The notes under the pieces are model-generated. The model did no database searches. It had not been told where the DNA came from and was given only the letters and a program-made list of their open reading frames with translations. A DNA stretch of 35,310 bases from contig JBCCAG010000001.1 of assembly GCA_039814955.1 (NCBI GenBank), forward strand, positions 1-35,310, given 5' to 3'. The DNA comes from Cyanobacteria bacterium P01_A01_bin.135 (GTDB lineage Bacteria > Cyanobacteriota > Cyanobacteriia > CAKZMO01). Below are positions 5,561-24,529 of the stretch, piece by piece (the stretch's first letter is position 1; every line of letters starts with the position of its first letter). Both the position numbers and the translations under genes were made by a program.

Positions 5561-7480
5561 ATGATACCGCCATTTGAAGCTTTATCTCGCTCCCGATCCC
5601 TGCGCCGCTTCTTGCACGCTTTCCTCCTGACCTTCGCTCTAGTCTTACTGCAGTCCGCGATCGCCTCAGGGCAAGACTTCTCAGCATTTACGGGCCAGGC
5701 CAGCGCTGTTCCACCCGAGGGAGTCACCCGCTACGGCAGCATTGAAGTGGCCTGGGTGCGATCGCCTCTCAGCGGCGAGCGGCTTTTTCAGGTGGCAGCG
5801 CCCACTGTGCTCGATCGCGCCAGCATTAGCGAGGGAACGCTGCCGGTAGACCTGCGGGCCCAGAACATTGCGGCGCAGCTCTCCATCGAGGTGGAACGGT
5901 TTCGAGACAGCGCTATTACCCAACTTCTTCAGTACCTCCGTCACGGAGAAACTCTGACGCCGCGCCGGGCTGAGGTGATTATCTCAACCTTGAATAACCG
6001 ACCCGTTCTGCAGATCAGCAGCTCCGATGGCTCACGACCGCTCACCATTGCCACCGTCACCCAAACGGACGTGAATTTTTACAGCGAGACGCCGGATTTG
6101 CTGGCGGAAGACTGGCGAAACCTGCTGCAGACAGAGGTGGCGCAGCTAGAGCAGCTTGCCACTGTGGAAGCGGCACGGCAGGGGATTCGGGACAGTCTGG
6201 CTATACTGCTGGGAGCGATCGTCGCCACCGGACTTTTCGTGGCTCTATACCGATGGGTGGGGCAGAACCACCGCGCTTTACTGAAGCGAGATGTTGCCAT
6301 GTCCGAAGAGAATGCAACCACTACGACGGGAGATGGCCCATCAAACTCCGCCACGGTAGAAGCAGGCGCAGCATCGGTTGCCCCACCATCCTTCTCGGGC
6401 CTGCTGGCTGATCGCTCCCGGTTTCTGCGCTTTCTGCATAAGCCATCGACCCAGGGGCAGAAGCAGTTTGGTAGGTCCGCGCAGTGGCTGCTGGTGTGGC
6501 TAATTGTCCTAACCTGGTATGGAACCTTAATCGGCTTGAGCCACACCCTGCCCATGCTGATGCAGTGGCGCAGCGCTATCTTGAGTCACCCCTTCCGGCT
6601 GATTTTGATTTGGTTTGCCGTCACGCTTGCACTGCGGGTGAGCCAAGTGCTGATTCAGCGCTTTGTCGATAGGCGAGACGCCCTCGGTATTCTTGTCGGC
6701 GAAGCTCAGCGCAAAGTCCTGCGCAGCAATACCATCGGCGGAGCACTGAAAGGGCTAGTTTCTAGCGTCTTGGTAGTCACCGGCCTACTACTCACCCTTT
6801 CTACCTTTGGAATTTCCACCGGGTCGATTTTGGCCTGGAGCGCTGTGCTAGGTCTAGCCGTGTCTTTCGGAACCCAGAGCCTAGTGAAGGATGTGGTCAA
6901 TGGCTGCCTGATTCTGCTGGAAGACCAGTTTGCCGTGGGCGATGTGATCATTGTTAACGGTATGGCGGGTTTTGTGGAGGAAATGAACCTGCGCATCACC
7001 CGCCTACGAGACCCAGAAGGACAGCTGATCACCATCCCAAACGGAGCGATCGCCGAAGTGCGGAATCTGACCCGTCTCTGGTCTCGGGTGGACTTCACCA
7101 TTGAAGTGGCCTATGAAAATAACCCGGATAAGGTGCTAGGACTGCTTAACAAGATCGCCCAAGACATGTACAACACCCCAGAGTGGCGAGAGAAAATGCC
7201 CGACCCGCCCGAAGTGCTGGGAATTGACCAGCTGACCCATGCAGGCATCTTAATTCGGGTTTGGATCAAGACTGCGCCCCTGCAGCAGTGGCTCATAGGG
7301 AGGGAGTACCGCCTCCGGGTCAGGCGAGAATTTGAAGCCCACGGCATCACCATCGGTAAGCCGCAGTGGATTACCCACACCATCGCCCCAGAGCAGAGTC
7401 GGTCTCAGGGCACTGCAACAGCGATCGCCCTCACTCCCCCACCATCACCTCCAGCTCCCGTAGAACCTGAGCCCGACTAA
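5561..7480 (+). CDS. Mechanosensitive ion channel, MscS family, with a large N-terminal periplasmic and multi-TM extension
   Basis: Signal-like N-terminus, several TM segments, and the MscS core (LVKDVVNGCLILLEDQFAVGDVIIVNGMAGFVEEMNLRITRLRDPEGQLITIPNGAI). ATG at 5561; TTG at 5555 is an alternative start. Confidence 0.9.
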   Translation: MIPPFEALSRSRSLRRFLHAFLLTFALVLLQSAIASGQDFSAFTGQASAVPPEGVTRYGSIEVAWVRSPLSGERLFQVAAPTVLDRASISEGTLPVDLRAQNIAAQLSIEVERFRDSAITQLLQYLRHGETLTPRRAEVIISTLNNRPVLQISSSDGSRPLTIATVTQTDVNFYSETPDLLAEDWRNLLQTEVAQLEQLATVEAARQGIRDSLAILLGAIVATGLFVALYRWVGQNHRALLKRDVAMSEENATTTTGDGPSNSATVEAGAASVAPPSFSGLLADRSRFLRFLHKPSTQGQKQFGRSAQWLLVWLIVLTWYGTLIGLSHTLPMLMQWRSAILSHPFRLILIWFAVTLALRVSQVLIQRFVDRRDALGILVGEAQRKVLRSNTIGGALKGLVSSVLVVTGLLLTLSTFGISTGSILAWSAVLGLAVSFGTQSLVKDVVNGCLILLEDQFAVGDVIIVNGMAGFVEEMNLRITRLRDPEGQLITIPNGAIAEVRNLTRLWSRVDFTIEVAYENNPDKVLGLLNKIAQDMYNTPEWREKMPDPPEVLGIDQLTHAGILIRVWIKTAPLQQWLIGREYRLRVRREFEAHGITIGKPQWITHTIAPEQSRSQGTATAIALTPPPSPPAPVEPEPD

Positions 7481-8087
7481 TCCACCGCTCCTCCCGCCGC
7501 ACCGTGCCACTGTAAGGAGCCCGCACCACTGCCAACGTCGCGATCGCATTGTCCACCTCATCTAGCTTCAGCCGCGTCTGGGAAACCTGAAACGCCCTGT
7601 CTCGCAGGCGCTGTTCATACTCTGCCCACTGCCGCTGATAGGCGAGCATGGCTTGGTTGTAGGCCTCGACGTGCTGGGTCTGGCCTAGCCCGTGGTCATA
7701 TTCCCGGTACTGCCGTTCCTGCTGCGCCTTCTCCAGCTGTCCCTGCCCTAGCTCCTTGAGGTTGGCCTGCTCATGCTCCAGGACGATGGAATTTAACCCA
7801 TCAATGGTCTGCAGCTCCGCTAGCTCCTGCTGCTTGAGCTGCCAGGCCTGCTGCACCGCGGCGAGGGCGGCCTCTTGCTCCAGGTAACTTGCGTCAGGTA
7901 GGGCAGCGATCGCCGGGACGGACTTAGGCGCTGCCGGTGCGCTGATGGCTGAGAACTGTAGCCGATCTAGGGTGAGCTGTAGCTGCTGCCGCTGACCCTC
8001 CAGATGCTGGCGCTCTCGGCCTCGGTCGGCGATCAGGTCCCCAACCACAATGCGATCGCCTTCTTTTACCTTCAGGTCTTCCTGCAA
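7431..8087 (-). CDS. Lipoyl-hairpin plus coiled-coil (HlyD-like) protein fragment; the N-terminus appears lost to a frame break
   Basis: LKVKEGDRIVVGDLIADR (first lipoyl half), a long Q/E/L-rich coiled coil, then VVRAPYSGTVRR (second lipoyl half). The only start is a TTG inside the lipoyl motif. The 3' end overlaps the MscS 3' end convergently by 50 nt. Confidence 0.6.
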   Translation of the reverse strand: MQEDLKVKEGDRIVVGDLIADRGRERQHLEGQRQQLQLTLDRLQFSAISAPAAPKSVPAIAALPDASYLEQEAALAAVQQAWQLKQQELAELQTIDGLNSIVLEHEQANLKELGQGQLEKAQQERQYREYDHGLGQTQHVEAYNQAMLAYQRQWAEYEQRLRDRAFQVSQTRLKLDEVDNAIATLAVVRAPYSGTVRREERWISRAQVLRELEVMVGE

Positions 8088-8323
8088 TCGCTGGCCCAGA
8101 CGCCGGTGATTCTGGCTATCATCTGCCGCTCACTGGCGGAGTCGTTGTAGACCTTCACCGCTGAATCCCGCAGCGCCAGGGAGCGGCCCACTGTTTTGGT
8201 GAGGCCGCCGTCGTTGGCCAGGTGAACGCCGAGGAACAGCAGGGCCGTCGCCGCGGCCAGTATCCACAGCTCGCTGCTGCCGCCCGTACGCAGTCGCCGC
8301 CGAGGGTTGCTGACGCTGATGCA

Positions 8324-8689
8324 CTACACCGGCTCCGGCCAGAAGAGCTGCACCCCCTGTTTGGTGAAGGTGTCGTTGAAGCAGGAGAGCAAATGACCTA
8401 GCGGCAGAGCTAGGCATAACCGTATCTCCCCCAGAACCATGCCGGTAACCAGGGAGGCGATCGCCAGGGCTGCTGAGGTGAGTAGGCAGTGGGTGACGGT
8501 GCGGTGGGGGTAGCGGTCTTCTATCCAGCTCGACAGCGGGAAGCACACCTGGCCGATGATGCTGGTGGTGGAATCGAGGTCGGGGAGCTGGGAGCCGATG
8601 ATGGCCAGACCCAGGGCTATGGGGTTAGAGGTGGAGAGGATTAGGGAGACGCCGGCGGTGCCGATCGCGGCGTGGGTGAGGGTGAGCAC
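8324..8689 (-). CDS. YdjM/DUF457-like membrane-bound metal-dependent hydrolase, ending prematurely at an in-frame TAG
   Basis: GTG start. Motifs THAAIG, LPDLD, HRTVTHC and GHLLSCFNDTFTKQGVQLFWP resemble the YdjM family. The same frame stays open for about 75 more codons after the TAG (8324-8326) and encodes the expected distal TM helix (ELWILAAATALLFLGV). Confidence 0.7.
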   Translation of the reverse strand: MLTLTHAAIGTAGVSLILSTSNPIALGLAIIGSQLPDLDSTTSIIGQVCFPLSSWIEDRYPHRTVTHCLLTSAALAIASLVTGMVLGEIRLCLALPLGHLLSCFNDTFTKQGVQLFWPEPV

Positions 8690-8698
8690 TATGCAAAC

Positions 8699-10033
8699 TT
8701 AATTGAGAAATTTAGTGTTACTATGTCTCCCCTGTAAACGAAGGCTCTTTTCATCACTAGAAGCTTTCATCACCTCTTGTCTAATCCAATTAATAAAGCA
8801 CTTGCAGCAATGCTCATTCTTCAGCTTCCATTTTTCATCACCCTGATACTCTAGCCAACCAAGAGTATGTTGCATTGTTGTAAAGAGGATCTTATAAAAT
8901 TGCACGAGTTCTCTTGACCTTGCATCAGACTCGTTCATTCTTTCAATCAGAACTGAACTATCAATTATGTAATCACCTTTTTCAATCTCCTTAAATAGGT
9001 GCATCAAATGGCCTATAAATAGAGAAACCGAAATCCCAGAGTTATGGACCGTTTTAATAACTTCATCGAGTTTTTCTCGTTGAATATCTATTGGGTGAAT
9101 ATCTACCGGAATCACGATTTCATTTTCCACTTCAGCGATAAATTCTTTACTACCTCTTATTGTACGGATAATGAGCTTTAAAATTCCAAGCTTTTCCTCT
9201 TTTCTTCGGCCTGAAAGGGCAAATCCAAGAGATATGATCATACTATCAAGGCCTATAGCTAGGCCCATAGAAATTAAGGCAGGCTCTTCAAGTTTTTTTA
9301 TTTTATGATACGGAGCTAATAGTGGAATATCTTGATCTTCATCAATGTACTGCGATCGAGATAGACTTTCTTGATTGATCAGATGGGCAGGCCGAAATTC
9401 TGAAGGTACAGATGCTAAAGCGCTTTTGTCTTTTATGAGTATTTCCTCGGGCGTCAAATCTTTAAGTTCATACTCAAACTTTGGCTTGAGTTGATTTACT
9501 AGGCTACTCAATTGCTCATATTGTGTCTTGATAGCAATAGACTCATTCTCTATTTGTCTAGCTACAGGCCCATAACCTGACTCATTCGTATATAACCCCC
9601 TATCTATTTCTATCGCTAATTGTTTTTGCTTTTCAAGATATTCTGAGTTTAATCTATGAATATCATTCTCAATTGGTGTAAACACTTCTTCCACCAAATT
9701 AAAATGCGCAGAGCTAGCTAGATTTCCAGCTAGCTCTGCTTGTTGACTGCTAGTAAGCTGCTCATAGTAAGAAAAGAAACTTGTATAAACACTCAGAGAA
9801 GCTAAAAATAACGAACTAGTTAGCCTTATAAAAGGAGCATCTTTCACTTGACCAGAGGTAAGGAGAAACAGAAGTGCTTGTATAAAAGTTCCAGCCACAC
9901 CTCCTACGAATATTTTTGGAAATATTTGAATAGCTCCGAATACTGTCGTTGTACCGCTTGCAAGGTTACACATTAGCAAGGTAACAAATAGAATCTTTTT
10001 ATCTTTATATTCTTCGAGTATCGGAGTATTCAT
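8699..10033 (-). CDS. Hypothetical 444-aa membrane protein: 3 N-terminal TM helices, a coiled coil, a 4th TM and a ~170-aa C-terminal domain; compositionally foreign
   Basis: Uninterrupted ORF in a strongly AT-rich block. Hand counts give 37-38% G+C in lines 9001 and 9241, against 62% in line 8401. No HIP1 sites. Hydrophobic segments: ILFVTLLMCNLASGTTTVFGAI, FVGGVAGTFIQALLFLLTS, LTSSLFLASLSVYTSFFSYY and ALISMGLAIGLDSMIISLGFAL. No catalytic motif was recognised. Confidence 0.85.
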   Translation of the reverse strand: MNTPILEEYKDKKILFVTLLMCNLASGTTTVFGAIQIFPKIFVGGVAGTFIQALLFLLTSGQVKDAPFIRLTSSLFLASLSVYTSFFSYYEQLTSSQQAELAGNLASSAHFNLVEEVFTPIENDIHRLNSEYLEKQKQLAIEIDRGLYTNESGYGPVARQIENESIAIKTQYEQLSSLVNQLKPKFEYELKDLTPEEILIKDKSALASVPSEFRPAHLINQESLSRSQYIDEDQDIPLLAPYHKIKKLEEPALISMGLAIGLDSMIISLGFALSGRRKEEKLGILKLIIRTIRGSKEFIAEVENEIVIPVDIHPIDIQREKLDEVIKTVHNSGISVSLFIGHLMHLFKEIEKGDYIIDSSVLIERMNESDARSRELVQFYKILFTTMQHTLGWLEYQGDEKWKLKNEHCCKCFINWIRQEVMKASSDEKSLRLQGRHSNTKFLN

Positions 10034-10200
10034 GAGTACATCCCTTGATAGTTATTACTCAAATGCATCCCGCTTCCCTCAAGCAGGATCCGGTAGTAAG
10101 TTAAAAGAGTACTCTCGCGGGTACCTAGCACTAAAGACATCCCACCTGAAAGATAAGCCTGCGCTAACTTCTTGATGCTCAAACGAATATGTAGCATCAT
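10030..10200 (-). CDS. Unlisted 56-aa ORF (MMLHIRLSIKKLAQAYLSGGMSLVLGTRESTLLTYYRILLEGSGMHLSNNYQGMYS), possibly HTH-like, coupled to the 444-aa gene
   Basis: Found by manual reverse-complement translation; it is below the 60-aa cutoff of the ORF track. ATG at 10200 lies 2 nt after the upstream TAG (10203-10205). Its TGA (10032-10030) overlaps the ATG (10033-10031) of the 444-aa gene as ATGA. The ORF fills the whole spacer. Confidence 0.4.
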   Translation of the reverse strand: MMLHIRLSIKKLAQAYLSGGMSLVLGTRESTLLTYYRILLEGSGMHLSNNYQGMYS

Positions 10201-10202
10201 GG

Positions 10203-10823
10203 CTACTGCCCCAACCGCTTTCTGGCCCCCCGCACACCCCCCAACTGCTTCAGCGTCATCCCCGCCACCAGCGTCACCCCACCCGTGATGTAGAGCCCCT
10301 TATTCCCCGTCCCCATCCCAATAAAGCGGGCAATCCCAAACGCCATCAGGCAGGCGATAATGACGGGCATGATGACCACATACTTCGTGTGCTGGGGGCT
10401 CGCCGACTTGTTCAGCCCCAGCTTCTCATTGCGCACCACCTTCCGGGCCAGCATCGGGTTGCGCCCTGCCAGAGACTGCAGCTCTGCCAGCCGCGCCTTC
10501 TCCACCTGCAGGCCCAGCGGCAGGGCAATCTCAATCTCCTGCATCTCCAGGAAAATATCCTTGCCTGGATTGACGGCGGCGAAGCAGCAGACCCGCACCC
10601 CGCGCACCATCAAATCCTCCAGCCAATAGCGGATACCGGTGGTGAGCCGCTTCGCCTCAGGCAGTACCAGCAGCGTCCGGCCATCCACGTTTTGGGCAAT
10701 CTCATCCTTCAGGACATCCATGGTCAGCCCCTTGTCGTTCTCGTCCGTGGTGGGGATTTGCAGCTGCTCGGCCACCACCTGGAAGAAGCGCTTGCCCGAC
10801 CCCTTGTAGATTGCCATGGCCAC
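10203..10823 (-). CDS. Hypothetical protein with an NTPase-like alpha/beta region lacking intact Walker motifs and two C-terminal TM helices; possibly the 3' part of a frameshifted longer gene starting near 11028
   Basis: The segment AIYKGSGKRFFQVVAEQLQIP...TLLVLPEAKRLTTGIRYWLEDL...VRVCCFAAVNP looks like the post-Walker-A part of a P-loop NTPase, with the Walker-B Asp replaced by Pro. C-terminal TMs: YVVIMPVIIACLMAFGIARFIG and LYITGGVTLVAGMTL. An upstream ORF in another frame (ATG 11028 to TGA 10837) abuts it. Confidence 0.65.
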   Translation of the reverse strand: MAMAIYKGSGKRFFQVVAEQLQIPTTDENDKGLTMDVLKDEIAQNVDGRTLLVLPEAKRLTTGIRYWLEDLMVRGVRVCCFAAVNPGKDIFLEMQEIEIALPLGLQVEKARLAELQSLAGRNPMLARKVVRNEKLGLNKSASPQHTKYVVIMPVIIACLMAFGIARFIGMGTGNKGLYITGGVTLVAGMTLKQLGGVRGARKRLGQ

Positions 10824-11035
10824 GGCCAGCTCGCTCTCATAGCGCTGGGCGATCGCTCGCGGCGCGGGGCAGGCAATCGCGGCTGTCGCGGTGGCCGTAG
10901 GGAAAGCTGACGGCTAGACATCTGCGGCTGAGACGAATAGGGTCTACAGTTCCCTTTACTGGCGGGCGTATAACGCCGCCGGAGGCGTAGAGGGGGGCGA
11001 TCGCGTTAGCGTAGCGGCATCGCCCCATGGCGCAC

Positions 11036-11263
11036 CTAGACATCGTCGCTTTTGGAGCGGCCAGGGCCGGTGGCCTTGCCCCCGAGGAGGCCAAAGACGG
11101 TGAGCAAGCCGACCTGGCAAGCCGTGGTGGAGGTCTCGAAGATTCGCTCTTGGTAGGGGTTGAGGTCATCGGAGCTGGACAGGTGCAGGGAGATGCCGCC
11201 GGTGGCGAGGGTGAGGCAGAGGACTGCGCCGAAGACGGGGCGGAACGAGTTGGGGTTGGGCAT
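11036..11263 (-). CDS. Hypothetical small two-TM protein (75 aa)
   Basis: ATG-initiated ORF with two hydrophobic helices (FRPVFGAVLCLTLATGGISL and ACQVGLLTVFGLLGG). It is the first gene of the minus-strand string, divergent from the NACHT gene. The overlapping plus-strand ORF (11027-11296) looks like a GC-rich antisense artefact. Confidence 0.4.
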   Translation of the reverse strand: MPNPNSFRPVFGAVLCLTLATGGISLHLSSSDDLNPYQERIFETSTTACQVGLLTVFGLLGGKATGPGRSKSDDV

Positions 11264-11386
11264 TGGCTAATACCGAGTGAAGAGCATAGGGCGTAAATAG
11301 TCGCGACGGGTGAACGGCCTATGTCTGTATCATCGGCAATTAGCGCTTAGAGTTCAGTCTCTGTAAGGGTTTCGGAATAGGTGACT

Positions 11387-11416
11387 TTGGTACGACTTTG
11401 GGACAACTTCTATACT
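11387..11416 (+). promoter_or_regulatory. Promoter candidate TTGGTA-N18-TATACT for the NACHT gene, embedded in direct and inverted repeats
   Basis: TTGGTA at 11387-11392 and TATACT at 11411-11416, 29 nt before the ATG at 11445. GACTTTGG occurs twice (11383-11390, 11394-11401). CAACTTC (11404-11410) and GAAGTTG (11418-11424) form an inverted repeat that brackets the -10 element. Confidence 0.3.
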
Positions 11417-11444
11417 TGAAGTTGGAATTTATTCTATTTGAGCC

Positions 11445-13979
11445 ATGGCAAAGCGATCGCTCACGGCATGTCCGGCGGGGATTGAGACGGCCACTACCGC
11501 TTTGACGGATAGGGGGTGGAGCCGTGAGGATTTGGCGGCCAGGGTGGTGATTGAGGGCAAGAGCAGGGCCACGACGGGAGTCGGTATCGGGACGGTGAAG
11601 AGATTCTTTGGCAGCGGGAGCTTAGATCGGAAGTATTTTGTGGGGATTTGTCGGGCGCTGGGGCTGGATTGGGAGGCGATCGCTGGGAAGAAAGGCGCTG
11701 AGCCTGGAAAGGGAAGCGGTGCAGGTTCGGAGGCTGAGGGGCGATCGCCCTCTGAGCTACCACAGCAGGCATCAGTTATCTATGACCTGCGGGGCGCAAA
11801 GTTTGGCGGTGGGGCTGCGATGGGTGGTGTCCACCAGTCGGGAGGCATCCTCAACGATTATTCAGGCAGCAAGGGGGCCAGCGCTCTCGATATCGATGCC
11901 CTGGTCCAAACCGTGCGGGAAAAGGTCCACGACAATATCCAGCAGCGGTGCGGCACCATGCGGGTGCTGGACATGAACCACCCCATTGACCTGACGGATA
12001 TCTACACCAGCGTCAATATTTTGGAGAAGATTACTGGACGGCGGCGGCTGGGGCGAAATGAACTGCTGCAAAACTTAGACCTTGAATACTTCGATCACTT
12101 CATGCTGAGCGACATCCTAGAGAAACGAATACCAGTGCTAGCAGCGGTCGAGGCTCACGACAGGTTGATAATTTTAGGGAAACCAGGAGCGGGGAAAACT
12201 ACCCTCCTTAAACGATTAGCGACGCTCTGTAATCGCGGACAGCTTCAGTCTGATGCCGTCCCTGTTTTCGTAACGCTCAAAGACTTTGCTGAGACCGAGG
12301 ACGAGCTAGATTTGCTGTTGTATATCGGACAACAATTGGAGCAGTATGGGGTTGAAGATGGGGCGATCGCTGCAAAGACACTGTTGCAGGAAGGGCGAGC
12401 GCTGGTACTCTTGGATGGCCTGGATGAGGTACCGGAGAGTGACCATAAACGGGTCATTCGAGACATTCGAGGCATCTATGAACGGTTTACGGGCTGTCAG
12501 TTTGTAATCACCTGTCGCATTGCGGCCCAGGAATATACTTTTGAGCCATTTGTGGAAGTGGAGGTGGCAGATTTTGATAATAAGCAAATTACAGAGTTTG
12601 TTGCCAAATGGTTTCAAATCCAGGAGAACCCCGTCAAGGCGCAGACGTTTCTAAAGCGCCTAGAAAATGACAGGCCCATCAGATTGCTGGCTCGCACCCC
12701 ACTACTTCTAACGCTACTATGCTTAGTCTTTCAGGACGCAGCTGATTTCCCGCGCAACCGCTCTCGGCTCTACAAAGAGATGCTGGACATGCTGCTGAAG
12801 AAGTGGGATGCGAAGCGCAACATTGAGCGAGACCAGGTGTACAAAGCGCTATCGCTACAGCGGAAGGAGGACCTACTGAGCCATGTAGCCTTTGAGGCTT
12901 TCAAACGTGGCGAACATTCATTTGAGCAGGGCGACATTGAGCGACAGATTCAAGGCTACATCCAGAACCTACCGGAGGTCAGCACTGATCTAGATTTCCT
13001 GCAGCTCGATAGCGAAGTCGTTCTCAAATCTATTGAGGCACAGCACGGGCTGCTAGTGGAGCGGAGGCGGGGTACTTACTCTTTTTCACATCCGACGTTT
13101 CACGAATACTTTACTGCCAGCTATATCGCCAGCCTCAACCCAGATAATCTACAGCAGCGCCTGAAAAACATGGCAGCGAATATAACGGAGAAGCGTTGGC
13201 GAGAGGTGTTTTTACTCGTGCCCGAAATGATAAGAAGCGCTGACTATCTTGTACGTCTTATGAAGCAGGAGGCTGATCAGCTCTTAGCGAGAGATGAAAA
13301 GCTGCAGCAGGTAATAGCTTGGGTAAGAACCAAGCAGTTGTCAGTCAATGCTCAAGATATAGGCTTTGAAGTTCGAAAATTTTACTTCAACCGGGTTCTT
13401 GATCTTGACTTTTACCGTAAACAAGACCCTACTCTCAGCCTTGCCCTTGCCCTATACCGCGATATCGAGCTTGCTATTTGGCTTGAACTCTATCGTAATC
13501 CCTACCGTGCCTTGGAACTCGAGCTCGAATCCTATTATGGCCTCGGACAAGCCTTCACATTGGACTGTGACCGCGCTCCCGAGTTTACTCTCAATCGCAT
13601 CCTTGGTCGTGCCTATTCTTTCAACGATCCTACCCGTTTCCTCAATAGCTCACTGGTGGAGGGAGCAGTTGAAGGGCTAAGAGACCAGCTTCCTATACCT
13701 AAAGGCGATCGCTCCGAATTCAGGCAATGGTGGCAATCTAACGGTAAAGCCTGGACCGAACAGCTCAGAGCCGTAATGATAGATCACCGCAACATCGGCC
13801 ACGACTGGCAGTTTACCAGCGAGCAAAAAGCGTTGCTAGAGCAGTACTACGATGCTAACCAACTACTCATCGAATGCCTCAATAGCGATTGCTACATCAC
13901 CCGCGACGTAAGAGAAGAAATCGAAGACACCCTCTTCCTCCCCATTGCCGAAATCGAAGCGCGAAAAGCCAAGCCCTAA
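11445..13979 (+). CDS. STAND NTPase with NACHT domain (bacterial NLR-like): N-terminal HTH module, NACHT, and a C-terminal helical domain typical of cyanobacterial NACHT proteins
   Basis: Walker A is LIILGKPGAGKTTLLKRL and Walker B is ALVLLDGLDEV. The pre-NACHT block (CGTMRVLDMNHPIDLTDIYTSVNILEKITGRRR) and the C-terminal block (RNIGHDWQFTSEQKALLEQYYDANQLLIECLNSDCYITRDVREEIEDTLFLPIAEIE) are as I recall them from cyanobacterial NACHT proteins. The N-terminal ~85 aa is HTH-like. Confidence 0.93.
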   Translation: MAKRSLTACPAGIETATTALTDRGWSREDLAARVVIEGKSRATTGVGIGTVKRFFGSGSLDRKYFVGICRALGLDWEAIAGKKGAEPGKGSGAGSEAEGRSPSELPQQASVIYDLRGAKFGGGAAMGGVHQSGGILNDYSGSKGASALDIDALVQTVREKVHDNIQQRCGTMRVLDMNHPIDLTDIYTSVNILEKITGRRRLGRNELLQNLDLEYFDHFMLSDILEKRIPVLAAVEAHDRLIILGKPGAGKTTLLKRLATLCNRGQLQSDAVPVFVTLKDFAETEDELDLLLYIGQQLEQYGVEDGAIAAKTLLQEGRALVLLDGLDEVPESDHKRVIRDIRGIYERFTGCQFVITCRIAAQEYTFEPFVEVEVADFDNKQITEFVAKWFQIQENPVKAQTFLKRLENDRPIRLLARTPLLLTLLCLVFQDAADFPRNRSRLYKEMLDMLLKKWDAKRNIERDQVYKALSLQRKEDLLSHVAFEAFKRGEHSFEQGDIERQIQGYIQNLPEVSTDLDFLQLDSEVVLKSIEAQHGLLVERRRGTYSFSHPTFHEYFTASYIASLNPDNLQQRLKNMAANITEKRWREVFLLVPEMIRSADYLVRLMKQEADQLLARDEKLQQVIAWVRTKQLSVNAQDIGFEVRKFYFNRVLDLDFYRKQDPTLSLALALYRDIELAIWLELYRNPYRALELELESYYGLGQAFTLDCDRAPEFTLNRILGRAYSFNDPTRFLNSSLVEGAVEGLRDQLPIPKGDRSEFRQWWQSNGKAWTEQLRAVMIDHRNIGHDWQFTSEQKALLEQYYDANQLLIECLNSDCYITRDVREEIEDTLFLPIAEIEARKAKP

Positions 13980-13981
13980 CC

Positions 13982-14653
13982 TCACATCAGCACCGCCAAA
14001 ATCCCAGCCACAGGCCGCCGCTCCCCCCACATCTGCTGCACCATGCTACGCTTCCGCACCGGAATAGACTTCCGATGCCGCCCCTCCCCATCATCCCAGC
14101 AGTAGTAATAGCTCACTGAGGAGTTCTTGCGCCGCTTATTCCCCAACCGCTCCTCAATCCAGCCGCAGGCCTGCCCCTTGGGCACATGCCGCCGCGAGGA
14201 GGCCTGACGCGCTGGCGCGACCAGCTCAGACGGCACAGCCTCAACTAGACTTAGCTGCCCACCATTTCCCCCAGAACAGGGCACAGCCACCAGCGCGCCC
14301 CGCTGGAAGTACCGGCAGATAGCATCCCCATCCAGCAGCACCTTCTCATAGCCCGCCAGCTCCCAGGCGGTAGGGGGCTGCTTCACGGTGCCCTGCCGCC
14401 CGATGTCGTCCTCCAGCCAGGAGGAGGCGACCTGCACCCGGCTACCCATGGCAAAGGGCGGGTAATCCTGTTCTGGGGGAGATGACACCCCATCAATGCC
14501 CTCGGCCACGTGGGGCTGGGGGATGCCGCTGCCGTAGTCAGCAAAGATGATGGTCTCCTGGCCTGCGGGCTGCACCTCGGTGACGATCGCCCTCCCAGCG
14601 CGGGTGGTGATCTGGTTCCCGGCGGCAACGTCCAGAACCCCTGAGGCAGGCAC
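13982..14653 (-). CDS. Hypothetical 223-aa protein downstream of the HNH gene (two SH3/Tudor-like beta segments plus a basic C-terminal motif)
   Basis: GTG start 35 nt after the HNH stop. The stop lies 2 nt from the convergent NACHT stop. The C-terminal motif is GWIEERLGNKRRKNSSVSYYYCWDDGEGRHRKSIPVRKRSMV. No family was recognised. Confidence 0.7.
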   Translation of the reverse strand: MPASGVLDVAAGNQITTRAGRAIVTEVQPAGQETIIFADYGSGIPQPHVAEGIDGVSSPPEQDYPPFAMGSRVQVASSWLEDDIGRQGTVKQPPTAWELAGYEKVLLDGDAICRYFQRGALVAVPCSGGNGGQLSLVEAVPSELVAPARQASSRRHVPKGQACGWIEERLGNKRRKNSSVSYYYCWDDGEGRHRKSIPVRKRSMVQQMWGERRPVAGILAVLM

Positions 14654-14688
14654 CTCAATCGTTAGCTCAAATTACCCTTGGTCGAAGC

Positions 14689-15006
14689 TCATAGCTGACC
14701 CTCCTGCAGTAGGTTGAACTGGCCATGGCGCTCCAGCTTGGCGTAGTGGTTCATAGATTGAAAGGGGCGATCGTGGTTGAGGTGGCATCCAGTACAGAGT
14801 GCCCGCAGGTTGTCGGGCGTGTTATTGCTGGGGTCTTGGTCCAGGTGGGCGACGGTGAGGGTCCAGCGCTGGGGATGGGCCATTACAGCAGTGGCATCGG
14901 TCTCCCCCAGAACACGGGTGATGAAAGTAGGGAGGCTCTCGTGGGGGCGACGGCAGGCCCGACCACAGCCCTGGCAGCGCCAGTCGGCCGCTTCTGACAA
15001 ACCCAT
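14689..15006 (-). CDS. HNH endonuclease (the ORF continues upstream to 15120 as an in-frame fusion with a transposase N-terminal remnant)
   Basis: CxxC (WRCQGCG) and the HNH core (TVAHLDQDPSNNTPDNLRALCTGCHLNHD). An internal Met (MGLSEA) at 15006 is the most plausible HNH-only start. Confidence 0.8.
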   Translation of the reverse strand: MGLSEAADWRCQGCGRACRRPHESLPTFITRVLGETDATAVMAHPQRWTLTVAHLDQDPSNNTPDNLRALCTGCHLNHDRPFQSMNHYAKLERHGQFNLLQEGQL

Positions 15007-15120
15007 CACTCGCAATGCTGCGCTCACCGTTCGTTTTCCTGGTGCTAGGACTGCTCCGCTGACCAGCACCACTGCTGAGTGCCATACTGAGTGGGAGAAC
15101 AGGGGGCAGAACAGCAGCAT
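15007..15120 (-). mobile_element. Remnant: the first ~40 codons of a DDE-type putative transposase, fused in frame to the HNH ORF
   Basis: MLLFCPLFSHSVWHSAVVLVSGAVLAPGKRTVSAALRVMGL matches, from memory, the conserved N-terminus of a putative-transposase family (LF.PLFS..VW..A..L..GA.LAPGKRTV..ALRVMGL). The rest of that transposase is absent. Confidence 0.45.
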
Positions 15121-15198
15121 TAGCGTCGTGAAGTCTATTCGAGCCAGGGTTTCAGCGTTTTACCTATTCTCCTCGCTACTGCCTCCCCCCCAACTCCA

Positions 15199-15564
15199 AT
15201 GGATAAAGTCGAGCCAAATGTGGAGATTGACTGGCGCATTTACCCGATGACGCGGGATATCTCCTTTGCCCGGCATGAGCAGGAGGACCGCAAGTACACC
15301 GTAGTAACCCTGACGTGGCCAAATAGGGACAGTTGTCGGCTGTTGGAGATGGGGCGGCCAGATGGCCATCAAATCTCCAGCCTCATGTTTGTCATCACAA
15401 ACTGTTCGATGGGGCCGGATGAGCAGGTTTCCTTGGCGGCCCGAATCCTTGAGCGGTTGCTGAATGACGCGCTTATCCCCGGTGGAAACAAGATGCTTGC
15501 ACTCGTTGAGCAGGCTGTCTCTGAGCAGGCTAACCCACATCACCATCAGTCGTGCGTCAGGTAA
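15199..15564 (+). CDS. Hypothetical 121-aa protein
   Basis: ATG ORF with protein-like composition and codon usage. The overlapping 173-aa minus-strand ORF is R/S/P/W-rich and looks spurious. No SD sequence and no family recognised. Confidence 0.4.
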   Translation: MDKVEPNVEIDWRIYPMTRDISFARHEQEDRKYTVVTLTWPNRDSCRLLEMGRPDGHQISSLMFVITNCSMGPDEQVSLAARILERLLNDALIPGGNKMLALVEQAVSEQANPHHHQSCVR

Positions 15565-15702
15565 GGAACTAGACCATACAGTCGGCAACGACGAAAGCAG
15601 ATATGTCTGTTCCCCCGAGACGCATTCAGGTGAACGCCCAGAAGCGGCAGCGGAAATCCTTCGCACCAATCTGTACTGCACGCTAACTGCGGCGTCTCCA
15701 AG

Positions 15703-18231
15703 CTATCGCTGATTAAGGCAGTAGTCCGTCACCTGCAAGTTGAATGAGAATACCCCGCCAAACCAGTCATCAAAAACCATATTTTCTGCGTCCGACTCTA
15801 AAAATGTATCCACCGTTGCCTTCCAAGTAGAATCATTGTCGGGCAAAATCAATCCATAAAACTCACAGGATAATGGTCGCTCCGGAACCAAGGTGAAGTT
15901 GCTGATATCTTGCCCCTCTCGTATCAGCTCAGCGTAGGATAGAATACCGTCGCCAACAAATGCATCGATCTGTCCAGAGGATACGGCCTGTACTGCCGTT
16001 TGCCGTCCATCCGCGCCACGAAAGGGAATCAGGGTTGCCTGTGGATAGCGATCGCGTACCAGGGTTTCCGCTGTCGTATCTTGTAGTACGCCTAACCGAG
16101 TATCGGCCAGGGGTAAGTTGGGGTTCACTGTATCGGCTTTGCTGCTGGAGATTAGAAAACGTGTGCTAGCCGTTAAAATCGACTGGGAGAAGGTGATATC
16201 CGCAATATCGGTGCGGATTGTGTTCGGCCCGCATTCTAAGTGAACGCTGCCGTCCCTCACTAGGTCAAAGCGATTTTGCAGTGTTGAGGTTAGCTCCACC
16301 AGCTCCACCCGTGTAGGGCTATCGAGCGCATTTGTCAGGTAGTTGCCCAGGGCGATCGCCATTTCCCCACAATAGCCATCCCAAGCGGTGTCTTGATTGA
16401 TGTAGCCGAAGGGTGGGGCGTCTTTGCGGAAGGCGACCTTCAGCACCCCAGTACGCTCGATTTCGGCCAGGATGCTCTCATCTCGGGGCGGTGTCTCGGG
16501 GGCGATCGCTGGTGGGTCAATTGGTATGGGCAGTGAAGCCCCATAGGCCGCCTCAAGCTGCTCGGCGGTCAAAGATTGAATAATATCGAGCCGGAGGGGT
16601 TCGTCTGCGCTCAGAGCGCGGCCTGCGGCGGCAGTTAGGCGAGCTAATTCTGGGCGGCGCGCTTCGTCATCCCTAACCAAATGGTTTTGCAGAAACGCCA
16701 GCACTAGCCCCTTAGCGTAGCGGGCGCCAATGTCCCGGTGTTCCCCCACTAAGGCCTGAAACATCCCCTCGGCATTAACCCGACCGGGCTTAGAGGTGAA
16801 GTGGGTCCCTACCTGCATTAATGCTAGGTACTTCGGACTGGACTGGGCCCAGATAAATGGGTAGATCTGCTCGGGGACCACAGGGGAAAGGATGTCGTTA
16901 CTGCCCGAGATCATCAGCAGCGGAATCGCCACCTGGGCCATTCCTTCTGGCCCATAGAGATGTCCCCCCATGGGGTGTGTCACTACCACAGCGCTGATGC
17001 GATCATCGCGGAGTTGGTAGTTTTCTGGGGGCAAATGCTGGGCACGACACTGCAGGTATAGTGCGATGTTGAGGATAACGTTCTCCTCATGGCAGGCTGC
17101 GGCTAGCCGCAGGTAGTTGATTTCAGCTCCCGCCAGCGCCAGCGCCGTTGAGCCGCCTAAGGAATCTCCCATAACGGCAATACGGCTCAAGTCTAAGCGG
17201 GCGGACCACTCGGGCGATCGCGCGACCAGCCGTTCCAGGTCATCAATGAGAAAAGAGATTTCCTGGGGGCGGTTCAGAAACTCCATTGGGCTCAGCAATG
17301 TGTTCAAGCGTCCCTGCAAAAAGGTTTGGCGATAACTTAAGTCGCTGCCGATGTGGTCTATCAGCATGACGGCAGTGCCATGGGATGCCAGGTGCTCCGC
17401 CATGAAGACGAAGCTCTCTTTCACATCGCCAAACCCGTGGGATAGTAGCAGCACCGGGGCAGGCTCAGTCAAGCCCTGCGGATAATACACGTCTACCGGA
17501 AAGTCGTAGCTGACGGTGAGGCCTGTATCTGTCTGGCGCAGGTCTGGGTTCTCAACCGTAATACTTGTGGTACCAACCGCATAGGAGCCTGGCTCACTCA
17601 AGCGGGTTAGTTCATCAGCGATCGGACCAGAAGCATCAGCCTCGGCCTCTAGCGTTGCCTGCTGCTGAATGGCACTAACGACAGCCTGGTTATAGTCCAA
17701 GTAGCCCGTCAGCGTCTGGCGCAGCTTCAGCAGGTCCTCTAGCTTGATGTAGATATCTTCGGAGGGAAACTGACGCAGCACATCCAGCAGAGTCCAGTTG
17801 TTTGAACCTGCTGCCGCCGCACCAATGAGCGCTGCCCGTAATCCATAGAAGCCGTCGACATCGGGGTGGACCCGAATTACCTTGCCAAGGTTAGAGAGTA
17901 ATTCTCGCCCCAGTGGAGAGTAGGTCAAATTGCCCACCGTCGCCCGATTGAAGGGGATAGGCTGGCGCAGTTGCTGCTGCACGGTCCCTCGGACTTGATC
18001 GGGCAAAAAGCCCACGACTAGGGCGACATCTCCGCTGGCTTCCCCAGTTTCAGCAAACGCCTCTAGATCATCAACGGATAGGGTTAGGGTTAGGGGACCT
18101 TCAACCACCACCTGCACCACTTCTGCACCTGCGGCGGATTTGGGCTGCGTGATTTCTCCAAGAGCGCCAGCGGTGGCTAGACAGGCCGCAGAGAGCACCG
18201 TTTTCCAGAAGTTTGACAGTAGGCGAGCCAT
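15703..18231 (-). CDS. Secreted three-domain protein: DUF1400-like N-terminal domain, alpha/beta hydrolase, and a C-terminal family-3 periplasmic solute-binding domain
   Basis: Signal peptide (MARLLSNFWKTVLSAACLATAGA). DUF1400-like region (LTLSVDDLEAFAETGE...LRQFPSEDIYIKLEDLL). Hydrolase elements (LLLSHGFG, nucleophile elbow VMGDSLGG). SBP_bac_3-like tail (VLKVAFRKDAPPFGYINQD...YCGEMAIALG...IDAFVGDG). Confidence 0.88.
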   Translation of the reverse strand: MARLLSNFWKTVLSAACLATAGALGEITQPKSAAGAEVVQVVVEGPLTLTLSVDDLEAFAETGEASGDVALVVGFLPDQVRGTVQQQLRQPIPFNRATVGNLTYSPLGRELLSNLGKVIRVHPDVDGFYGLRAALIGAAAAGSNNWTLLDVLRQFPSEDIYIKLEDLLKLRQTLTGYLDYNQAVVSAIQQQATLEAEADASGPIADELTRLSEPGSYAVGTTSITVENPDLRQTDTGLTVSYDFPVDVYYPQGLTEPAPVLLLSHGFGDVKESFVFMAEHLASHGTAVMLIDHIGSDLSYRQTFLQGRLNTLLSPMEFLNRPQEISFLIDDLERLVARSPEWSARLDLSRIAVMGDSLGGSTALALAGAEINYLRLAAACHEENVILNIALYLQCRAQHLPPENYQLRDDRISAVVVTHPMGGHLYGPEGMAQVAIPLLMISGSNDILSPVVPEQIYPFIWAQSSPKYLALMQVGTHFTSKPGRVNAEGMFQALVGEHRDIGARYAKGLVLAFLQNHLVRDDEARRPELARLTAAAGRALSADEPLRLDIIQSLTAEQLEAAYGASLPIPIDPPAIAPETPPRDESILAEIERTGVLKVAFRKDAPPFGYINQDTAWDGYCGEMAIALGNYLTNALDSPTRVELVELTSTLQNRFDLVRDGSVHLECGPNTIRTDIADITFSQSILTASTRFLISSSKADTVNPNLPLADTRLGVLQDTTAETLVRDRYPQATLIPFRGADGRQTAVQAVSSGQIDAFVGDGILSYAELIREGQDISNFTLVPERPLSCEFYGLILPDNDSTWKATVDTFLESDAENMVFDDWFGGVFSFNLQVTDYCLNQR

Positions 18232-22499: not shown

Positions 22500-24529
22500 A
22501 TGGAACAGTCAAAAGCGAGACGAAGCCGGGGCGTTACCCTGAGCGCTGGGGGTTTACAGCGGCTCACCCAAGCGATTCAAGCAGCAGAAGCAGAAGAAAA
22601 TGGGGGCGATCGCTTCACTAATGAGGCCCTGAGCGATCGCTGTGGCATATCCAGCAGTACCCTCAGCCGCATTTGGACCCGGCGATCGCGGGTTGACCGG
22701 CGGACGATGCATCTGCTGTTTAGCGCGTTTAGCCTTGAGCTGCGGGATGGGGACGGCACCCTGCTGCAGACCCTAACCGGCCACGACGGATACGTTACCG
22801 ATGTGGTGTTTAGCCCCGATGGCGAGCAGCTGGTGTCGGCGGGGTGGGACGGCAGCGTCCGTATTTGGGACAGGGACGGTGCTCCCGTTGCGGCGATCGC
22901 GGCCCATGACGCCATCGTGCGTTCGGTGGCCGTTAGCCCTGATGGGCAGTGGATCGCCTCGGCGGGGGAGGACAGCCTGGTGAAGCTGTGGACCCGGGAA
23001 GGGGAGCTAGTGCGCACCTTCGCCGGACACCAGAATTTTATTTGGGATGTGGCCTTTAGCCCTGACGGTAAAACGCTAGCCTCGGCAAGCTGGGACAACA
23101 CCGTAATCCACTGGCGCTTAGACGGAGAAATTATCCGCACCTTTGAGAATTCCACCCCAGAGGAGCGCGAAACCCGGCTGGTGAGCGTCGCTTTTAGCCC
23201 CGATGGCCAAACCCTAGCGGCGGGGGAGTGGTTTGGCAGGATTCTCTGGTGGGATATCGACGGTCCGCTCAAAATGACGGCAGCAGAGCATGTCAGCAGC
23301 GTGGTCAGCCTGGCCTTTAGCCTCGACGGCCAAACCCTGGCATCCAGCGCCTGGGACCAGACCATTAAGCTTTGGCGAGATGGGGCATTGGTTGAAAGCC
23401 TCAGCGCCAGAACCTGGGAGGTGGCCTTCAGTCCCGACGGAGCGCGGCTGATTTCCGGGGGAGAGGACACCCTGGTGCGCATCTGGCAGCTCTCCCCGGA
23501 AATTTTGACGGTGCTGCGGGGCCACTTAACGTCAGTGTATGGCGTAACGCTGCTGCCCAATACCGTCCTTTCCGCCAGCACGGACAACACCGTGAGGCTG
23601 TGGGACCAAAGCGGCAAGGTAATCCGCACCCTCTCTGAGCCTCAGGGGCAGGCCTGGGATGTTCAGATGAGCCCGGATGGCCAACGATTATCGCCTCAGA
23701 TGAGGCGGGTCAGATGCACCTGTGGACCGAAACTGGCCAGCACCTGCGCACGATTGCCGCCCACAATGGCCCCATCCGCCGCCTTGCCCCCCATCCCCGT
23801 GAGCCGGTGATTGCCTCGGCGGGCTGGGACGGGGCGACCAAGCTCTGGGACTACGACGGCAGCGTCATCCAAACCCTCGCCCAAGGGGGCGATCGCCTCA
23901 ACGCGGTGGCCTTTAGCCCTGACAGCCAGTATCTCGCGACTGTGGGCCGGGAGGAAATCCTGCGGCTGTGGCAGCGCGGGGCAGACGGGCGGTTTTCAAA
24001 CCAGCCCCAAGTTGAGGCCGAGGGCCACACCGACAACATCTGGGACGTGGCCTTTAGCCCTGATGGGCCGCTGGTTGCCACCGGCAGTAATGATGGGACG
24101 GTTAAGCTCTGGTCTCTAGAGGGAGAGCTACTGCAAACCCTAGAAGGACACCGCGATCGCGTTCACGGGATTACCTTCATCCCAGCTAATTCAGAGCTGC
24201 CACAGGACTGGGGGACAGTGATTGCCTCAGCGAGCTGGGATCGGACTATCAAGCTGTGGAGCCTGGATGGCACCCTGAGACTGACTCTAGAAGGCCACAA
24301 TGAGCGGGTACTGGACCTAGCCTTTCATCCAGCAACGGAGACCAGCGGCCCGCTATTGGCGTCTTCGGGTTTAGACGACATCGTGATTCTGTGGGAGTTG
24401 GACCAGGTAATTGATGACGCGGCTGTGTTACAGCACGGTTGTCGGTGGGTACAGGATTACCTGCGGCTGCAGGATGAGCGGGGCACTGCAGCGCTGTGTG
24501 ATGGCGTTAGCGGGGAGCCTGTGCGCTAG
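22500..24529 (+). pseudogene. HTH-WD40 repeat protein (about 13 WD repeats) interrupted by a 1-nt frameshift near 23681-23690
   Basis: ORFs 22500-23810 and 23714-24529 overlap in different frames. The repeat register continues across them: ...QMSPDGQ in frame 1, then TIIASDEAGQMHLWTE in frame 2. The conserved tail (GCRWVQDYL) is present. The N-terminal ~80 aa is HTH-like and joins the first WD repeat directly. Confidence 0.85.

Follow-up and report, generated by a model that had tools for sequence, protein, structure and literature searches.

The 35,310-nt contig JBCCAG010000001.1 of the metagenome-assembled genome 'Cyanobacteria bacterium P01_A01_bin.135', analysed here over its complete length (hereafter the window), carries on its reverse strand an AT-rich block of approximately 1.5 kb (8690-10194) consisting of a 161-nt leader, an intact gene for a 444-aa membrane protein (8699-10033, locus tag AAF289_00045) and a 9-nt tail. 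GC content, G+C at third codon positions (GC3) and a comparison of the junctions with 54 related loci identify this block as a single foreign gene, recently acquired by horizontal transfer, rather than the two-gene cassette (a 56-aa regulator with a 444-aa membrane effector) proposed in a preliminary description of the DNA. The reading favoured as a whole is that this gene occupies a cargo slot in a decaying module and encodes a membrane conflict or exclusion protein, and it is given a little better than an even chance.

The composition break and the insertion junctions

In 200-nt sliding windows, GC content is 35-39% across 8700-10100 and 61-67% on either side, with each transition at the block edges complete inside one such window, so the abrupt drop and recovery seen in the preliminary description are real features of the contig. 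The block (8690-10194) has 37% GC and a GC3 of 0.30, compared with 62% and 0.84 for the flanks; individually, GC3 is 0.297 in the 444-aa gene, 0.845 in the upstream flanking gene and 0.836 in the downstream flanking gene, while the contig's other genes lie at 0.58-0.70. The reported absence of the HIP1 octamer (GCGATCGC) from the block also stands, as the window contains 48 copies (approximately one expected by chance) at a mean spacing of approximately 735 nt and none between 8465 and 10848, but a 1.5-kb gap has by itself a p of approximately 0.13 and is weak support for foreignness.

The block separates a gene designated A206 (10203-10823, reverse strand) from a gene for a YdjM-like metal-dependent hydrolase (8087-8689, reverse strand). 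Across the 54 related loci compared, the junction between these two genes is either empty or filled with other cargo, and it is empty in at least nine of them. The recent foreign origin of the 444-aa gene, as first suspected from composition, is therefore well supported by the GC3 contrast, the low-GC DNA of its relatives and the empty junction. The GC content of genes of the same family is 34-43%, and that of the DNA around them 33-49%, which matches the insert and indicates a low-GC source; sequence comparison places the nearest relatives in marine filamentous cyanobacteria or in mobile elements of these organisms. A Logan contig (run SRR22824269), produced with a different assembler, is 100% identical to the window over 8962 nt (7072-16033) and spans both junctions, and the block is therefore not a chimera of binning or of one assembler. 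The locus represents a clean, recent and datable transfer between lineages (GC3 0.30 into 0.84), with the empty site known from related genomes, and is useful for studying the entry of cargo into mobile-element backbones in cases where no recombinase is evident.

The tight packing described previously, with almost no spacer, an ATGA overlap and a 9-nt gap, was recovered at the same coordinates. The stop codon of A206 lies at 10203-10205 and the 56-aa open reading frame (ORF) starts at 10200; the stop of this ORF overlaps the start of the 444-aa gene at 10030-10033 (ATGA); and the TAA of the 444-aa gene (8699-8701) is separated by 9 nt from the GTG of the next gene at 8689. Across loci, the C-terminus of A206 is ...RGARKRLGQ* and the hydrolase gene opens with ATGATGGCnATTACCCACGCnGCGATCGC, encoding MMAITHAAIA. 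In related loci ...RKRLGQ* is followed by ATGATGGCnATTACCCAC, the conserved pattern being ...RKRLGQ* / ATGATGGC, the empty junction of locus L017 reads TAATCATGATG, and the A206 stop overlaps the hydrolase start in loci L036, L039, L046 and L057 (CAATGATGG). The left junction of the window reads GGGCAG TAG CC ATGATG CTACATATT..., and the right junction reads ...AATTAAGTTTGCATA GTG CTC ACC CTC ACC CAC GCC GCG ATC GG, with the hydrolase coding sequence picking up again at this GTG. The ATGATG at 10195-10200 (reverse strand), 2 nt after the A206 stop, corresponds in the junction comparison to the original start-codon pair of the YdjM-like gene, now displaced, and it occupies exactly the position of the hydrolase start in empty sites. 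The foreign DNA (8690-10194) entered right after those start codons, in a module copy in which A206 and the hydrolase gene were just 2 nt apart, and the 56-codon leader ORF, ending in an ATGA overlap with the new gene, is read as an accidental by-product of this entry.

An imperfect direct repeat of 8-10 nt (CATGATGCT at the left junction and CATAGTGCT at the right, with 7 of 9 positions matching) could be a diverged target duplication, microhomology or chance. An insertion sequence, transposon or miniature inverted-repeat transposable element was rejected, as the membrane protein is the sole long ORF and there are no terminal inverted repeats, and an integron gene cassette was rejected because the 9 nt after the stop leave no room for an attC site and the window contains no integrase. 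An Rfam search of the block gave no match. A hairpin of only five pairs spans the insertion junction (10191-10206; GTAGC-CATGAT-GCTAC, then ATATTCGTTT); it was picked up by a terminator scan but is at chance level (three sites, with 1.5 expected).

The host module and its cargo slot

The genes flanking the insert are, by sequence comparison, a copy of a multi-copy cyanobacterial backbone module of plasmid type, here embedded in a chromosome. Clustering of the ORFs at A206-related loci gave a usual order of an approximately 188-aa helix-turn-helix (HTH)-like gene, A206, an approximately 340-aa YdjM-like hydrolase, a membrane-fusion-protein-like (MFP-like) gene, and then an approximately 260-aa protein and/or a staphylococcal-type nuclease. 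The region upstream of the HTH gene frequently carries an HNH-like gene together with a relative of the 223-aa gene found at 13982-14653 of the window, and occasionally pentapeptide or NACHT genes. A206, annotated by PGAP as an ATP-binding protein, has two C-terminal transmembrane helices and no Pfam match, and forms the left border of the slot; its relatives, at 51-70% identity, were found at the 54 loci in many cyanobacterial genera and in several copies per genome, with at least three in Leptolyngbya PCC 7375 and at least four each in Adonisia turfae and L. cf. ectocarpi. The pair formed by A206 and the hydrolase (annotated 'ATP-binding protein' and 'metal-dependent hydrolase') was found on 44 plasmids of cyanobacteria. 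After the pair, a Synechococcus elongatus plasmid has genes for a type IV secretion system (T4SS) DNA-binding protein and an MFP-like protein, with a thermonuclease nearby, and a Moorena plasmid carries the plain four-gene core of the module. The window's genes align to intact copies by tblastn at 64-66% identity for A206, 57-60% for the hydrolase and 44-53% for the MFP-like gene, in collinear order, and are members of the module. No informative literature was found on the plasmid module, and none that describes the A206/YdjM junction as a hotspot.

The window's copy of the module is decaying, as the HTH gene is missing and the hydrolase and MFP-like genes are broken. The hydrolase gene, which forms the right border of the slot and begins with GTG, is recognisable by its match to Pfam YdjM (E = 1.4e-22) but is a pseudogene: tblastn and translation against the intact homologs of approximately 340 aa revealed a TGG-to-stop change at codon 122 (8324-8326; WPEPV*CISVSNP in place of WPEPVWAVSVSNP in L012), homology in frame to approximately residue 200 and deletion of the C-terminal approximately 140 aa. 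The MFP-like remnant (7431-8189, reverse strand) lacks approximately 37 N-terminal and 46 C-terminal residues and abuts a convergent MscS gene, and no HTH gene lies before A206, where 34 loci have one. The surroundings of the insert, described previously as a GC-rich operon-like string, are thus not a healthy operon but a partly pseudogenised mobile module of plasmid type.

Upstream of A206, and inverted relative to the arrangement seen elsewhere, the window carries a 75-aa transmembrane ORF (11036-11263, reverse strand) and a NACHT NTPase (11445-13979, forward strand). The equivalent 75-aa ORF and NACHT/NCH2 pair fills the slot between A206 and YdjM in loci L009, L014, L015 and L032 (45-53% identity), and its location here, at the expected position of the HTH gene, suggests a second cargo position or a rearrangement. 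Further upstream, the 223-aa protein and a 143-aa HNH-like protein (together 13982-15120, reverse strand) recur upstream of A206 in 17 loci; the HNH_3 match of the latter is weak. The NACHT and HNH neighbours, cited in the preliminary description as company of the insert, are accordingly not its partners but components or cargo of the host module.

GC3 of the module genes (7431-8689, 10203-10823 and 13982-14653) is 0.74-0.85, compared with 0.58-0.70 elsewhere on the contig. As this is above the value of the contig's other genes, the module of plasmid type seems by its composition to be foreign to its host as well, which would make the region a three-layer mosaic. Elsewhere on the contig, two adjacent and overlapping WD40-repeat ORFs of 436 and 271 aa (22500-24529) look like one gene split by a frameshift or an assembly error.

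Across the related loci, A206 and the hydrolase gene are separated by 0 to 5243 nt, counted from stop to start codon, with cargo of 0.2-5.2 kb in occupied slots and gaps of only 25-71 nt in L012, L022, L037, L040 and L042. Of the 31 occupied slots with measured GC, 30 are lower in GC than their flanks, by up to 19 points, and the window shows the largest contrast in composition between slot and flank of all the loci compared. Slot cargo includes NACHT NTPases in eight loci (paired with the 75-aa transmembrane ORF in four), Abi_alpha, a CoiA-like nuclease, a PF06189 5'-nucleotidase, a DUF676 esterase and many unknowns, and candidate families from PADLOC are also represented (PDC-S08 at 2.6e-130, PDC-M44B, PDC-S70 and mad2). 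On these comparisons, the junction between A206 and the hydrolase is a recurrent landing site for lower-GC accessory genes that are often conflict-related. Its occurrence across many cyanobacterial genera, with cargo enriched in NACHT and candidate defence genes, makes it a possible search anchor for new immunity genes.

A conserved non-coding stretch (...CCCTGGGCAACTTAGAnCTGTnCAACAnnGACAGGTCTGGGCCA ATGATGGC) lies approximately 60 nt before the YdjM-like start in L015, L016, L028, L032 and L050 despite their different cargo, and the locus pairs L010/L019 and L020/L045 each have other conserved sequences at the right border. Either a promoter function or a role as recombination borders of the slot is conceivable for these stretches.

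The 444-aa protein, its family and its predicted structure

The 444-aa protein has no match in Pfam, NCBIfam, PHROGs, PADLOC (E <= 0.01) or the sequences of the PDB, and searches with both predicted products of the block against PADLOC and Pfam matched no model to either. A word-indexed search found 12 close family proteins, whose named hosts are Symploca, Okeania and Coleofasciculaceae (marine filamentous cyanobacteria). A profile scan of 1.84 billion representatives extended the family to 206 clusters at E <= 1e-3, 104 of them at E <= 1e-30, including high-GC forms of 750-830 aa with Pro/Ala-rich tails. A profile built from a 99-sequence alignment and searched against the word-indexed database returned known members only and reached no protein annotated with PF14362. 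The window's ORF is full length and retains the residues that are nearly invariant (>= 90%) in the 99-sequence alignment. Conserved positions in the first three helices are N23, S26-G27, T29-T30, G33, Q36..P39, G44, G48, Q52, S81 and Y83-T84-S85-F86-F87; the fourth transmembrane helix has A259, D263 and G270; and three tryptophans and one glutamate are conserved in the C-terminal domain.

The full-length AlphaFold2 (AF2) model has a mean predicted local distance difference test score (pLDDT) of 77, with helices at residues 5-37, 41-59, and 67-145 and 156-186 (the latter two forming a long hairpin), a fourth transmembrane helix at 250-275 and an alpha/beta C-terminal domain. The product is predicted to be an inner-membrane protein with three transmembrane helices, the third running into an approximately 120-residue extracytoplasmic helical hairpin, followed by the fourth transmembrane helix and a cytoplasmic domain. 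Hydropathy, the charge distribution under the positive-inside rule (lysines before the first transmembrane helix and GRRKEEK after the fourth) and the AF2 model favour an orientation in which both termini would be cytoplasmic and the hairpin outside. The preliminary description, which had three transmembrane helices, a coiled coil, one more transmembrane helix and a soluble tail, was broadly right in layout according to AF2 and hydropathy, but the CCKC cluster it singled out in the tail is not conserved in the family alignment.

Structural comparison of the full model against the PDB with Foldseek gave nothing below E = 0.1; the top neighbours were the helical bundle of the TorS sensor, ABC exporters and G-protein-coupled receptors, read here as generic helical matches. 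The BFVD database contains eight uncharacterised phage proteins of 270-410 aa that resemble the model in architecture (E-values from 1e-4 to 8e-3; TM-scores low). The C-terminal domain modelled alone (pLDDT 80.5; predicted TM-score, pTM, 0.74) consists of two helix-helix-beta-hairpin units, and its Foldseek neighbours in the PDB were nearly all winged-helix proteins (CooA/CRP, ArsR, MarR, SarA, TubR and MukE/JetB), all at E > 0.1, which provides a lead towards a tandem winged-helix-like domain.

A near-perfect 32-nt palindrome (GCAGAGCTAGCTGGAAATCTAGCTAGCTCTGC, with 14 paired positions and a 2-4-nt loop, then GCATTTTAAT) lies within the 444-aa gene at 9708-9739. It covers codons approximately 99-109, encoding AELAGNLASSA, and is found in this copy only, the best hairpins in six homologous genes having at most eight pairs.

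The nearest named family is DUF4407 (PF14362), a membrane coiled-coil family suggested for comparison at the outset, for which no function is given in the literature. All 12 close family members match its profile weakly (best E 2.1e-4), as do 12 of the 99 wider members (best E 1.2e-5), but every match is below the gathering threshold of 31.3 bits, with the window protein itself scoring 15.1 bits (E = 0.015), and membership is not established. The likeness consists of residues 108-201, in the hairpin, aligned to profile positions 143-229 of 297, and of a collinear layout of transmembrane helices, coiled coil and final transmembrane helix. However, the match is confined to coiled-coil-like sequence, where spurious similarity readily arises, and the 444-aa family differs in having a C-terminal winged-helix-like domain of approximately 130 residues and, in one clade, an N-terminal Zn ribbon.

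Company of the relatives, function and known systems

Long forms of the family with an N-terminal Zn ribbon (P0006, P0010, P0011 and P0012) are the last gene of a conflict operon, in which a dynamin-like gene (approximately 720 aa), a DO-GTPase1/2 protein and one or two paralogous proteins of approximately 900-1056 aa precede the family member (L005 1599-9389; L007 and L008 1-9503; L003 1710-9521). This operon is shared by Okeania and Coleofasciculaceae, with 29-50% identity between them, and in L005 it lies between a T4SS coupling-protein gene, EAD1-trypsin genes and LeoA/LeoBC-like dynamins. The 900-1056-aa proteins, encoded where a GAP1 protein (GAP1-N, -M and -C domains) would be expected downstream of the GTPase, have no Pfam match on record and no PADLOC match, and no profile comparison with GAP1 was made; a PADLOC scan recognised only the neighbouring LeoA/LeoBC-like dynamins and not the operon itself. 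It may be an undescribed cyanobacterial variant of DO-GTPase systems. The family, of approximately 200 clusters and without annotation, thereby includes one clade fixed at the end of dynamin-like/DO-GTPase operons, which is a testable membrane partner.

The short forms keep different company. In L001 the gene is beside a MobA/MobL relaxase, IS3, an integrase and Tn3; in L002 and L067 it is beside a Tn5 transposase, a GUN4-domain gene, a ResT/TelK resolvase and an integrase; in L069 it is chromosomal and divergent to two AAA_35 STAND-like genes; and an actinobacterial-type member is flanked by a NUMOD4-HNH gene and TnpB. In the Symploca-type loci (L002 2957-5404 and L067 80-2485) the short-form gene is followed directly by an approximately 350-aa GUN4-domain protein that is 93% identical between them. 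Two further associations were considered and rejected: the module does not travel with the 444-aa family, as the other family loci contain no A206, YdjM or MFP gene, and the 203-aa gene upstream of P0003 is not homologous to A206.

The company of these relatives, the other cargo of the slot and the predicted transmembrane and hairpin architecture argue that the 444-aa protein is likely to be a membrane-level conflict or exclusion component of mobile elements. It stands alone here, would serve in the Zn-ribbon relatives as the membrane partner of dynamin-like/DO-GTPase systems, and may sense or perturb the envelope during phage or plasmid entry. Its gene would probably be read by read-through from the module operon, with translation coupled via the ATGA overlap of the leader; such coupling would be important, since a search of the leader's coding strand gave no sigma-70-like promoter. 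The earlier suggestion of a defence cassette accordingly retains plausibility by association, given the NACHT, Abi_alpha and PADLOC cargo of the slot and the DO-GTPase operons of distant homologs, but it is not accompanied by a match to any defence model, and the protein matches no known system in PADLOC-DB v2, as its first description had anticipated. A more ambitious joint proposal is that the family is an unrecognised membrane sensor or effector of cyanobacterial dynamin-like/DO-GTPase immunity, also acting alone as cargo, and that the junction between A206 and YdjM is at the same time a dedicated capture site or defence hotspot shuffling NACHT, Abi_alpha, nucleases and the 444-aa protein between distant cyanobacteria; this combination is conceivable but improbable.

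Several observations weigh against the conflict or exclusion reading. As the protein has no defence model match, the functional claim is by association only. Pfam scans of the 28 larger ORFs of the window found no DO-GTPase or dynamin gene, and the operon-linked clade is just approximately 30% identical to the 444-aa protein and has the extra Zn ribbon. Slot cargo also includes TPR, SH3 and S-adenosylmethionine (SAM) methyltransferase genes and is not purely defensive, and no family locus except the window has an A206, YdjM or MFP gene, making the pairing with the slot unique. Structurally, the third transmembrane helix is just moderately hydrophobic in a topology drawn from hydropathy, the positive-inside rule and AF2, and the winged-helix assignment is not statistically significant. 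Finally, the module around the gene is decaying and expression of the gene is only predicted; no terminal inverted repeats were found at the block ends, where direct and inverted repeats are at chance level only; and there is no transposase, integrase, recombinase or other mobility gene within the block and no integrase in the window.

A possible though not probable alternative is that the protein serves the mobile element, as an entry or surface exclusion factor or as an envelope accessory of plasmid transfer, or that it is a membrane-remodelling partner of dynamin-like GTPases with a physiological role, for instance in membrane or thylakoid repair. Such roles would suit the short-form relatives on DNA bearing relaxase, type IV coupling protein (T4CP) or integrase genes, the host module as a plasmid backbone beside a T4SS DNA-binding protein, the uncharacterised phage proteins of similar architecture and the actinobacterial-type member between an HNH endonuclease gene and TnpB. 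However, the long-form operons carry DO-GTPases and EAD1-trypsin genes that the literature assigns to conflict systems, the family has no similarity to any known exclusion protein, and it is rare and patchy, unlike a housekeeping factor. It is unlikely that the gene is instead a functionless hitch-hiker, i.e. an intact but silent ORF that illegitimate recombination left in a dead module and in which decay has not set in. The pseudogenised module genes around it, a leader without a promoter-like site and the co-occurrence of family and module, among the fetched loci, in the window only would all fit such an origin, but an unselected long frame in AT-rich DNA decays fast, this one is full length with its nearly invariant family residues in place, and the geometry of the leader ORF would permit translation from the upstream operon.

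The original interpretation of the block, as an abortive-infection cassette in which a 56-aa HTH-like protein regulates the 444-aa membrane effector, is very unlikely. The ATGA overlap of the two ORFs would permit co-translation, an open frame of 56 codons in DNA of 44% GC is somewhat improbable by chance (approximately 0.05 by the estimate made here), and the surroundings are rich in conflict genes. However, the 56-aa ORF (10030-10200, reverse strand), which runs from the old YdjM-like start into the insert, has no match in Pfam, NCBIfam, PHROGs or PADLOC (PADLOC cutoff E <= 0.01) and no HTH, and a search of 5.8 billion proteins recovered nothing but its identical copy in the Logan assembly. 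At the 11 homolog loci no counterpart of it lies beside the 444-aa homologs; the small ORFs upstream of P0003 and P0005 are unrelated to it and 260-280 nt distant, and the leader has no conserved counterpart in the upstream regions of homologs, whose DNA resembles that of the window only within the coding region. Its GC3 of 0.51 matches neither host nor insert. Because the ORF lacks homologs and opens with two codons that are the host gene's displaced ATGATG, the notion of a small DNA-binding regulator coupled to a membrane effector fails, and the ORF is probably a fortuitous junction by-product of the insertion and not a demonstrable gene. Residues 18-33 (SGGMSLVLGTRESTLL) are faintly like hydrolase residues 11-26 (1.1 bits, a score reached by 33 of 3000 shuffles in a post hoc test), and the leader may be a remnant of the 5' end of a donor YdjM-like gene.

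That the block is an assembly or binning artefact, with reads of a low-GC organism joined into a high-GC contig, is scarcely credible. The genome was assembled from a metagenome and the jump in composition is extreme, but both flanks derive from one conserved module, the junctions fall within a few nucleotides of module gene borders, and the other assembler's contig is identical across both of them.

The reading of the insert as a foreign gene for a membrane conflict or exclusion protein invites comparison with three known kinds of system. Eleos is approached only in L005, where dynamin-like genes matching LeoA and LeoBC in PADLOC adjoin the long-form operon; the operon genes, including the family member, match no Eleos model, and nothing in the window is Eleos-like. 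The DO-GTPase ('GTPase-centric') systems were described as conflict systems by Kaur, Burroughs, Iyer and Aravind (2020; PMC7159879), with transmembrane components in 67% of systems and N-terminal Zn ribbons on GTPases; cyanobacteria are among the main hosts of neither subtype, and neither the transmembrane family of the 444-aa protein nor a cyanobacterial version of the systems is described (PMC7159879). The window differs from these systems in having no GTPase gene, and the 444-aa protein in having no Zn ribbon, a DO-GTPase in the same operon being present only at the distant homolog loci L005, L007 and L008; the likeness is that the Zn-ribbon homologs close operons with dynamin-like and DO-GTPase genes, providing a transmembrane component as in the described systems. 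Compared with the defence and accessory hotspots of mobile elements, the backbone here is an uncharacterised cyanobacterial module of plasmid type and no recombination site or integrase is tied to the slot, but the window's module shares with them a junction between conserved backbone genes that is either empty or filled with diverse lower-GC cargo. Hotspots with horizontally acquired cargo are a familiar phenomenon; no description of this slot or of its host module was found, and the membrane family is without annotation.

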